Below, piece by piece: positions 52,508-55,042 of a DNA stretch of 64,000 nucleotides (the first letter of the stretch is position 1; the number at the start of each line of letters is the position of its first letter). Source of the DNA: Escherichia coli (GTDB taxonomy: Bacteria; Pseudomonadota; Gammaproteobacteria; Enterobacterales; Enterobacteriaceae); assembly GCF_017348835.2 (NCBI RefSeq), contig NZ_CP071375.1. One strand, given 5' to 3'. Position numbers and translations under genes: made by a program. The notes under the pieces are model-generated. The model did no database searches. It had not been told where the DNA came from and saw nothing but the letters and a program-made list of their open reading frames with translations.

Positions 52508-55042
52508 ATGGCCGGGAATGACCGCGAGCCAATTGGACGCAAAGGGAAACCGACGCGTCCGGTCAAACAAAAGGTAAGCCGTCGTCGTTACGAAGATGAC
52601 GATGATTACGACGATTATGATGACTATGAGGATGAAGAACCGATGCCGCGCAAAGGTAAGGGCAAAGGCAAAGGGCGTAAGCCTCGTGGCAAACGCGGCT
52701 GGCTATGGCTGCTGTTAAAACTGGCTATCGTTTTTGCCGTGCTGATCGCCATTTACGGCGTTTATCTCGATCAAAAAATTCGTAGCCGTATTGATGGCAA
52801 GGTCTGGCAACTGCCTGCGGCAGTTTATGGTCGAATGGTCAACCTTGAGCCAGACATGACCATCAGCAAGAACGAGATGGTGAAGCTGCTGGAGGCAACA
52901 CAGTATCGTCAGGTGTCGAAAATGACCCGTCCTGGCGAATTTACTGTGCAGGCTAACAGCATTGAGATGATCCGCCGTCCGTTTGATTTTCCGGACAGCA
53001 AAGAAGGGCAGGTGCGTGCGCGTCTGACCTTTGATGGCGATCATCTGGCGACGATCGTCAATATGGAGAACAACCGTCAGTTCGGTTTCTTCCGTCTTGA
53101 TCCGCGTCTGATCACCATGATCTCCTCACCAAACGGTGAGCAGCGTTTGTTTGTGCCGCGCAGTGGTTTCCCGGATTTGCTGGTGGATACTTTGCTGGCG
53201 ACAGAAGACCGTCATTTCTACGAGCATGATGGGATCAGTCTCTACTCAATCGGACGTGCGGTGCTGGCAAACCTGACCGCCGGACGCACGGTGCAGGGAG
53301 CGAGTACGCTGACGCAACAGCTGGTGAAAAACCTGTTCCTCTCCAGCGAGCGCTCTTACTGGCGTAAAGCGAATGAAGCCTACATGGCGCTGATCATGGA
53401 CGCGCGTTACAGCAAAGACCGTATTCTTGAGCTGTATATGAACGAGGTGTATCTCGGTCAGAGTGGCGACAACGAAATCCGTGGCTTCCCGCTGGCGAGC
53501 TTGTATTACTTTGGTCGCCCGGTAGAAGAATTGAGCCTCGATCAGCAGGCGCTGTTAGTCGGTATGGTGAAAGGAGCGTCCATCTACAACCCGTGGCGTA
53601 ACCCGAAACTGGCGCTGGAGCGACGTAATCTGGTACTGCGTCTGCTGCAACAGCAACAGATTATTGATCAAGAACTCTATGACATGTTGAGTGCGCGTTC
53701 GCTGGGTGTTCAGCCGCGCGGTGGGGTGATCTCTCCTCAGCCAGCCTTTATGCAACTGGTGCGTCAGGAGCTTCAGGCTAAATTAGGCGATAAGGTAAAA
53801 GATCTCTCCGGCGTGAAGATCTTCACTACCTTTGACTCGGTGGCCCAGGACGCGGCAGAAAAAGCCGCCGTGGAAGGCATTCCGGCACTGAAGAAACAGC
53901 GTAAGCTGAGCGATCTGGAAACCGCGATTGTGGTCGTCGACCGCTTTAGTGGTGAAGTTCGTGCGATGGTCGGAGGTTCTGAGCCGCAGTTTGCGGGCTA
54001 CAACCGTGCGATGCAGGCGCGTCGTTCGATTGGTTCCCTTGCAAAACCAGCGACTTATCTGACGGCCTTAAGCCAGCCGAAAATCTATCGTCTGAATACG
54101 TGGATTGCGGATGCGCCAATTGCGCTGCGTCAGCCGAATGGCCAGGTCTGGTCACCGCAGAATGATGACCGTCGTTATAGCGAAAGCGGCAGAGTGATGC
54201 TGGTGGATGCGTTGACCCGTTCGATGAACGTGCCGACGGTAAATCTGGGGATGGCGCTGGGGCTGCCTGCGGTTACGGATACCTGGATTAAACTGGGCGT
54301 ACCGAAAGATCAGTTGCATCCGGTTCCGGCAATGCTGCTGGGGGCGTTGAACTTAACGCCAATCGAAGTGGCGCAGGCATTCCAGACCATCGCCAGCGGT
54401 GGTAACCGTGCACCGCTTTCTGCGCTGCGTTCGGTAATCGCGGAAGATGGCAAAGTGCTGTATCAGAGCTTCCCGCAGGCGGAACGCGCTGTTCCGGCGC
54501 AGGCGGCGTATCTGACACTATGGACCATGCAGCAGGTTGTACAACGCGGTACGGGTCGTCAGCTTGGGGCGAAATACCCGAACCTGCATCTGGCAGGGAA
54601 AACAGGGACTACCAACAATAACGTAGATACCTGGTTTGCGGGCATTGACGGCAGTACGGTGACCATCACCTGGGTCGGCCGTGATAACAACCAGCCGACC
54701 AAACTGTATGGTGCCAGCGGGGCAATGTCGATTTATCAGCGTTATCTGGCAAACCAGACGCCAACGCCGCTGAATCTTGTTCCGCCAGAAGATATTGCAG
54801 ATATGGGCGTGGACTACGACGGCAACTTTGTTTGCAGCGGTGGCATGCGTGTCTTGCCGGTCTGGACCAGCGATCCGCAATCGCTGTGCCAGCAGAGTGA
54901 GATGCAGCAGCAGCCGTCAGGCAATCCGTTTGATCAGTCTTCTCAGCCGCAGCAACAGCCGCAACAGCAACCTGCTCAGCAAGAGCAGAAAGACAGCGAC
55001 GGTGTAGCCGGTTGGATCAAGGATATGTTTGGTAGTAATTAA
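52508..55042 (+). CDS. mrcB: bifunctional penicillin-binding protein 1B (glycosyltransferase/transpeptidase)
   Basis: ATG at 52508 gives [22 protein letters not shown]... (844 aa); acidic [15 protein letters not shown] and basic [16 protein letters not shown] tracts; Gln-rich C-terminus. Confidence 0.95.

Follow-up and report, generated by a model that had tools for sequence, protein, structure and literature searches.

In-frame length alleles in the Gln/Pro-rich C-terminal spacer of Escherichia coli PBP1B, and the conserved motif at its end

FtsA and the penicillin-binding protein PBP5 (DacA) both end with an amphipathic helix that binds the membrane. In FtsA the helix follows a flexible, often Gln-rich linker, and helix and linker are described by the Pfam family PF11983 (FtsA_C). 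Changes in length caused by the misalignment of short repeats in coding DNA are known from the simple-sequence contingency loci of Haemophilus and Neisseria, in which the repeats are long and perfect, and frameshifts work as on/off switches. Coding DNA normally shows few in-frame indels. Among class A penicillin-binding proteins, PBP1 of Bacillus subtilis carries a disordered C-terminal region reported in PMC13270295 to sense wall damage. In E. coli PBP1B, a disordered peptide at the N-terminus was recently shown to bind FtsA and to bring PBP1B to the site of division (PMC13423804), and the construct analyzed by cryo-EM (residues 58-804) is described as devoid of the disordered N- and C-terminal regions (PMC8119973). 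The Gln/Pro-rich tract dealt with here is this already known disordered C-terminal region. Neither a role for the C-terminal tail of PBP1B or its terminal motif, nor a description of the W-h-x-x-h-F motif of this protein, was found in open-access papers and bioRxiv preprints.

The tail was monitored in the window, the whole stretch of 64,000 nucleotides of E. coli DNA analyzed (contig NZ_CP071375.1), and in complete E. coli genomes. The gene in the window is E. coli mrcB, encoding PBP1B. The ATG of the 844-aa protein is found at 52508, and the list of open reading frames begins at an upstream in-frame TTG (52493). The protein matches PF14812 (PBP1_TM), PF14814 (UB2H), PF00912 (Transgly) and PF00905 (Transpeptidase), all above cutoffs, and N-terminal transmembrane segment, UB2H, glycosyltransferase and transpeptidase follow one another in the order typical of PBP1B. 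Residues 53-804 are nearly identical to the E. coli PBP1B chains in PDB entries 3VMA, 3FWL and 5FGZ (E = 0). The same 2,535-nt coding sequence is annotated by RefSeq in K-12; the neighbours of mrcB in the window are hrpB and fhuA, as in K-12, and the loci annotated by RefSeq in K-12 and UTI89 match. The tail of K-12 PBP1B, the same region of the same protein, is identical in amino acid sequence to that of the window, and the two genes are told apart by a single synonymous SNP within the tail (54898) and by V782I shortly before it, no difference in kind. Apart from mrcB, nothing is encoded at the tail region on either strand. Rfam searches at gathering thresholds gave no match in the 52000-56000 interval, and scans for promoters and terminators gave matches at chance level only in the 54700-55300 interval; one weak terminator-like hairpin resides inside the tract on the minus strand (1 found vs. 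0.6 expected). The features of the gene and of its 3' end are listed in Table 1.

Table 1. Coordinates of mrcB and of the elements of the PBP1B tail in the window
Feature	Position	Strand	Evidence
mrcB CDS (PBP1B alpha form, 844 aa + stop)	52508..55042	+	ORF, Pfam, PDB match, RefSeq K-12
Cys794, last nearly invariant residue of the folded transpeptidase region; tail begins after it	54887..54889	+	
Gln/Pro-rich low-complexity tract, residues 795-832	54890..55003	+	composition, entropy, AF2 disorder
GNPFDQS mini-motif inside the spacer, residues 805-811	54920..54940	+	conserved across Enterobacteriaceae
Indel hotspot, PQQQPQQQP core, residues 814-822	54947..54973	+	repeat family D1; all length alleles differ only here
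Conserved C-terminal motif, residues 832-844, predicted short helix 834-840	55001..55039	+	

A preliminary description of this DNA had set a Gln/Pro-rich, low-complexity tail, encoded by cag/ccg-rich DNA, at 54900-55010. The peptide is encoded exactly as quoted, but those coordinates fall about 10 nt too far to the right, the correct ones being 54890-55003. Low complexity was borne out: of the 38 residues of the tract, 16 are Gln and 5 are Pro, and no other stretch of PBP1B is less complex. The bias is marked relative to the rest of the protein (5.9% Gln, 5.8% Pro; binomial p about 1e-10), and the 38-residue segments of PBP1B with the lowest entropy fall in the tract (2.65-2.72 bits vs. a median of 3.71). 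The codons fit the description as well, Gln being encoded by 12 CAG and 4 CAA, Pro by 4 CCG and 1 CCT triplets. The DNA of the tract is neither a tandem array nor a long perfect microsatellite: no array was detected by Tandem Repeats Finder in the 54700-55100 interval, and the longest perfect repeat run in the tract is (CAG)3, spanning 11 nt. The 27-nt core of the tract (CCG CAG CAA CAG CCG CAA CAG CAA CCT, 54947-54973) contains overlapping imperfect direct repeats, with periods of 6, 9, 12 and 15 nt. The mini-motif located upstream of the core is kept as (G/N)NPF(D/E/N)Q(S/T) in the tails of Escherichia, Salmonella, Enterobacter, Klebsiella, Citrobacter and Lelliottia, and the adjoining Gln runs vary.

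Tracts of this sort had been expected to vary between strains, and the length of the tail is indeed not invariant, seven tail lengths being found among 5,424 complete E. coli genomes. The region is present in one copy in 5,424 of the 5,426 complete genomes of the set, and the variable segment is bracketed by the anchor sequences TCTTCTCAGCCG and CCTGCTCA. Allele counts are approximate, because they were read off BLAST identity bands obtained with allele-specific queries, without tallying genome by genome, and because clonal relatives are over-represented in the set; representative loci of the alleles were read directly as sequence. The common allele, which has the length found in the window (PQQQPQQQP core, 844 aa), resides in about 4,650 genomes (86%), including K-12, O157:H7, UTI89 and Nissle 1917. 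An allele shorter by 9 nt (PQQQQP, 841 aa) is found in about 740 genomes (14%), of which about 570 are ST131-like and about 170 are represented by B/BL21, strain C, EC6563 and YSP8-1. An allele shorter by 12 nt (PQQQP, 840 aa) was detected in 27 genomes, from APEC O78 and other, mostly poultry, isolates. Longer alleles were found in 7 genomes altogether: the +9 nt allele (PQQQPQQPQQQP, 847 aa) in NS-NP030 and three other genomes, the +6 nt allele (846 aa) in PAR, the +12 nt allele (848 aa) in JNEC-KY172, and the +15 nt allele in elppa5. The PBP1B of the latter strain is annotated as 848 and not 849 aa, one Asp near the N-terminus being also absent. The +6, +12 and +15 nt alleles occur in one genome each, and may reflect errors of assembly.

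All length changes are multiples of 3 nt and are confined to 54947-54973, and the terminal motif stays in frame throughout. None of the alleles whose sequence was read in complete E. coli genomes has a frameshifted or truncated tail. No match at ≥99% identity to a synthetic (CAG)4 allele was obtained in the 5,424 genomes, and the (CAG)3 run is therefore not expanded in the E. coli set. About 99% of the genomes carry either the 844-aa or the 841-aa allele. The rarer alleles look clonal, and 26 copies of the -12 nt allele, mostly from poultry, are identical. Length variation in E. coli is thus a matter of few residues in alleles marking lineages, not of hypervariability.

The core was also compared in the genus Escherichia, leaving out E. 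fergusonii, E. marmotae and the main E. coli representative. E. albertii features a PQQQPQQQP core identical to that of E. coli also at the DNA level. The core is PQQQP in E. whittamii and in strain E1V33, PQQQQP in MOD1-EC7003, PQKQQP in strain SCPM-O-B-8794, and PQQP in strain E69. The sole contraction of the (CAG)3 run in the sequenced alleles, from PQQQ to PQQ, was seen in E. albertii and E. whittamii. Length states known from E. coli thus recur in other species, and as the same spot differs from species to species, the core has repeatedly grown and shrunk within Escherichia.

All six variant alleles found in E. coli are exact products of a single tandem duplication, or of a single deletion, of a 6, 9, 12 or 15 nt unit of the common allele. 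Each indel event has 3-9 equivalent placements, denoting flanking microhomology. A star-like pattern of alleles, each one step away from the common one, is the signature of misalignment during replication, and points to replication slippage as the mutational mechanism. Slippage had been invoked in the preliminary description, and the one-step allele series lends modest support to the idea; repeats are short and imperfect, and the mechanism itself is deduced from its products.

Length differences could alternatively have been introduced by recombination with other lineages, or by assembly errors, and not be generated at the locus. The 9 nt deletion is found on two different flanking haplotypes, and one of these gives some substance to the idea. 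In the ST131-type allele, the sequence upstream of the core matches that of UTI89, a B2 strain carrying the common allele, and the last 70 nt of mrcB are diverged, with 9 differences between 54979 and 55024. The diverged 3' end passes directly into an operon of four chaperone-usher fimbrial genes, which is inserted between mrcB and fhuA, and the breakpoint lies between 54913 and 54979, an interval which includes the repeat core. Because the diverged end of mrcB runs into the inserted fimbrial operon, the ST131-type short allele may have been imported, or created at the recombination junction. The three singletons, too, would fit the error part of this explanation. Yet the -9 nt allele of the B/C/EC6563 type, the -12 nt allele (27 genomes) and the +9 nt allele (4 genomes) are all flanked by ordinary E. 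coli DNA, with fhuA next door, and exact one-step products fit local misalignment, not the import of diverged DNA. As a general account of the alleles, import or error is improbable. Far less credit can be given to a contingency locus, in which a hypermutable repeat would often change in length and thereby tune or switch PBP1B in an adaptive manner. At least six indels of independent origin are packed into 27 nt, a crowding at odds with the rarity of in-frame indels in coding DNA, and the 9 nt deletion recurs on two haplotypes, as a hypermutable site might lead one to expect. Length polymorphism among strains is thus present, but both a long perfect repeat and a frame-shifting switch are absent: repeats do not exceed the (CAG)3 run, (CAG)4 alleles do not occur in 5,424 genomes, and nothing is switched off, as every allele is in frame. 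A phase-variable contingency locus was rejected, given in-frame changes only, two alleles accounting for about 99% of the genomes, and rarer ones which look clonal; the idea is hardly tenable.

C776 and C794 are at least 90% conserved in 150 PBP1B homologues. In an AF2 model of full-length E. coli PBP1B, built on the same number of homologues, pLDDT is about 91 up to residue 800, and drops below 50 for residues 811-832. Solved chains end at residue 804, and residues 805-844 are missing from all PDB constructs. Thirteen of the 14 SNP sites found in the tail are synonymous, the exception being D839E, and the tail is therefore constrained despite disorder; its amino acid sequence is under purifying selection. 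The terminal motif contributes 8 of these SNP sites (residues 832-844), all synonymous but the conservative D839E. The helix at 834-840 is predicted by AF2 with low to moderate confidence (pLDDT about 53).

The core of the motif, GWIKDMFG, is nearly invariant across Enterobacterales. In these bacteria the spacer, measured from the last Cys to the residue preceding the Trp, ranges from 15 to 50 residues, is rich in Gln, and is followed by the almost fixed GWIKDMFG. In distant PBP1B homologues (42-49% identity) the spacer is all but missing, and W[IL]K[KH]L[FL]xW closes the protein a few residues past the last Cys. In Gammaproteobacteria outside Enterobacterales the mini-helix directly follows the transpeptidase domain. 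The distribution of the motif was evaluated in 143 diverse full-length PBP1B representatives, obtained by a representative search; searches made with the C-terminal 250 residues retrieved mostly fragments, those made with the full-length protein only sequences about 90% identical. A strict W-h-x-x-h-[FL] motif is found in the last 25 residues of 41 of the 143 representatives (29%), vs. 0.75% of internal windows of the proteins, an enrichment at the C-terminus of about 38-fold (p about 4e-52). In 34 of the 41 carriers, which include Idiomarina, Algibacillus, Ferrimonas and Thioalkalivibrio, the motif is located within 2 residues of the C-terminus. The median spacing from Cys to Trp is 12 residues in the diverse representatives vs. 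41 in E. coli. The terminal helix of a short-spacer homologue is modelled by AF2 with a pLDDT of about 69, and is not confidently placed on the protein either there or in E. coli. These comparisons indicate that the terminal motif is conserved, and that the spacer was apparently expanded in Enterobacterales. The Gln/Pro tract is best read as a lineage-specific (Enterobacterales) spacer expansion, the conserved element being the terminal mini-helix.

A disordered tail may simply be a functionless leftover, its length drifting neutrally free of any constraint. Tail-less constructs, the only ones used in crystallography and cryo-EM, still fold and bind regulators, AF2 gives no structure for residues 811-832, and the spacer tolerates a range of 15 to 50 residues among Enterobacterales. 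This explanation is nevertheless quite unlikely, because it accommodates neither the excess of synonymous changes at SNP sites in the tail, nor the near invariance of GWIKDMFG in Enterobacterales and the about 38-fold enrichment of a related motif at the end of distant PBP1B proteins, nor the fact that the alleles read in complete E. coli genomes are free of frameshifts and truncations. At the opposite end, the spacer itself might be functional, and serve as a disordered probe which senses gaps in the peptidoglycan and directs PBP1B there, as proposed for B. subtilis PBP1. The E. coli tail is predicted to be disordered, and like the B. subtilis region it comes after the transpeptidase domain in a class A penicillin-binding protein; once the wall is damaged, the B. 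subtilis region stimulates synthesis (Brunet et al. 2022, as reported in PMC13270295), and E. coli PBP1B has been implicated in the repair of wall defects (reviewed in PMC7554673). The E. coli tail is however about 50 residues long and has a net charge of about -4, vs. the 14.9-kDa anionic domain of B. subtilis. The terminal motif is retained in many PBP1B homologues where hardly any spacer precedes it, and the spacer is therefore not the conserved part. Moreover, a pore-probing role has been proposed in E. coli for the linker of LpoB instead (PMC7554673). A gap-sensing spacer is accordingly unlikely.

The explanation which accounts best for the observations, and which we regard as probable, is that the tail consists of a disordered spacer and a conserved mini-helix, and that slippage generates length changes in the spacer which are tolerated. 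The spacer would run through the periplasm, disordered, from the transpeptidase region (after Cys794) to the amphipathic mini-helix GWIKDMF. Its job would be set by composition and approximate length, not by exact sequence, and small in-frame changes in length would therefore be tolerated. Such changes would be produced when the overlapping imperfect 6-15 nt repeats encoding PQQQPQQQP misalign, by replication slippage or by an equivalent process relying on microhomology, and the resulting variants would persist as alleles marking lineages. Length variants are probably nearly neutral. The terminal motif would be the functional element, presumably a weak interfacial membrane-binding helix, or a partner-docking helix, carried by a flexible tether. 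Plausible candidate roles are thus a weak contact with the membrane interface, and the docking of a partner in the periplasm.

A bolder version of the same scheme can be put forward as a tentative possibility. The tract would again be a spacer specific to Enterobacterales, and the W-h-x-x-h-F mini-helix an ancient tether or docking peptide, which would provide PBP1B with a second weak contact with the membrane leaflet or with a periplasmic partner, in a way resembling the terminal helices of FtsA and PBP5. The length of the spacer would set the reach of the motif across the periplasm, and the length alleles found in different strains could therefore subtly tune the regulation of PBP1B.

Taken by itself, the polymorphism of the tail is an ordinary small in-frame indel in the disordered tail of a well-studied enzyme, and matters little. 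It may be of use as a lineage marker, PBP1B being 841 aa long in ST131, BL21/B and strain C, and 840 aa long in APEC O78-like strains, and residue numbers of PBP1B should not be carried over from one strain to another without care. The terminal motif, conserved and attached to a spacer able to expand, is a modest lead. This C-terminal motif is as conserved as the N-terminal peptide. If PBP1B is indeed anchored or docked in the periplasm by the motif, a major antibiotic target would gain one more regulatory contact.

The mrcB core shares with the Haemophilus and Neisseria contingency loci the change in length by misalignment of short repeats within coding DNA, but differs from them because its repeats are short and imperfect, its changes all in frame, and its population dominated by two alleles. 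The tail shares with that of B. subtilis PBP1, for which a regulatory role is proposed, the nature of a disordered extension past the transpeptidase domain of a class A penicillin-binding protein. The B. subtilis region works in the thick wall of a Gram-positive organism, has no sequence relationship to the E. coli tail, and is not reported in PMC13270295 to carry a conserved terminal motif. The parallel is an analogy, not a family relationship, given that the B. subtilis region is anionic and of far greater length.

The tail also resembles that of FtsA, both proteins ending with a short amphipathic helix (a predicted one in PBP1B) which follows a flexible, often Gln-rich linker, with a shared core (VGSWIKRL in FtsA, VAGWIKDM in PBP1B). 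The C-terminal end of FtsA is VGSWIKRLNSWLRKEF, that of PBP5 is YIKLMFHHWFG. PF11983 matches 21 of 37 related PBP1B tails at E ≤0.01, with a best E of 3.6e-6. Membership of the E. coli tail in this family was rejected, as its score of 21.4 bits falls below the gathering cutoff of 27.4, and convergence or similar composition may account for the resemblance. The FtsA helix is cytoplasmic and about twice as long. That of PBP1B is periplasmic, a location which follows from the established topology of the protein, and has a lower hydrophobic moment (0.47-0.51 vs. 0.66-0.80 for the FtsA and PBP5 helices, with values of 0.78 and 0.66, respectively). PBP5 is, as PBP1B, a penicillin-binding protein exposed to the periplasm, and its amphipathic terminal helix features YIKLMF where PBP1B has WIKDMF. 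The PBP5 helix is longer and is the sole membrane anchor of the protein, whereas PBP1B is already held by an N-terminal transmembrane helix.

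In ST131-type strains, which carry the mrcB tail allele shortened by 9 nt, mrcB and fhuA are separated by a four-gene chaperone-usher fimbrial operon, made up, in order, by genes for a fimbrial protein, a chaperone, an usher and a second fimbrial protein. In the window, as in K-12 and UTI89, fhuA is found immediately 3' of mrcB. Since the final 70 nt of ST131-type mrcB are diverged (9 differences), comparison of the sequences suggests that a recombination boundary lies within the 3' end of the gene.

Features within and around mrcB (window positions, unless a locus is named)
Feature	Position	Remarks
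Nested perfect inverted repeats	52337-52409	hrpB-mrcB intergenic region
Cytoplasmic N-terminal low-complexity region, PBP1B	52580-52660	residues about 25-50; includes KGKGKGKG
(G/N)NPF(D/E/N)Q(S/T) island	54920-54940	inside PBP1B spacer
Perfect 11-bp hairpin	55058-55084	TACCGGATGGC, 5-nt loop, GCCATCCGGTA
Chaperone-usher fimbrial operon, four genes	L014 (ST131 locus, NZ_CP103710.1) 7847-12751	counterpart of window gap 55043-55261

Within the Gln/Pro spacer of PBP1B, the NPF island is kept throughout Enterobacteriaceae, and the Gln runs at either side are variable. One PBP1B tail weakly matched a eukaryotic NPF-repeat Pfam family. The N-terminal cytoplasmic region ranks second lowest in entropy within the protein. 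In strain elppa5, carrier of the +15 nt tail allele, one Asp has been lost from this region by a 3-nt deletion (DDDD to DDD; positions 121-330 of L017, the elppa5 locus), and in-frame length polymorphism is therefore a feature of the N-terminal region too.

Frameshifts within or adjoining the Gln tract occur in numerous database fragments of PBP1B (proteins P0012, P0017, P0020, P0024, P0083, P0097 and P0116-P0120), the source organisms being E. coli, Enterobacter, Klebsiella and Salmonella; in some fragments the frame is restored ahead of the terminal motif. Errors in the sequencing or assembly of low-complexity DNA are the probable cause; genuine truncations of the terminal motif are a less likely one. 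In the E. coli genome searches, 3 of the 5,424 mrcB matches reside in plasmid-labelled records, one genome has the tail region at two places, and two genomes gave no match to it.

The hairpin on the 3' side of mrcB begins 16 nt past the stop codon, features no T-run and was not called by the terminator scan; it may serve as a Rho-independent-like stabiliser, or else represent a repeat element. The nested repeats upstream of mrcB comprise the pairs CCCTCTCCC/GGGAGAGGG and GGGTGAGGG/CCCTCACCC, plus a 10-nt outermost pair; no match to them was found in Rfam, and they look like a palindromic intergenic repeat element.
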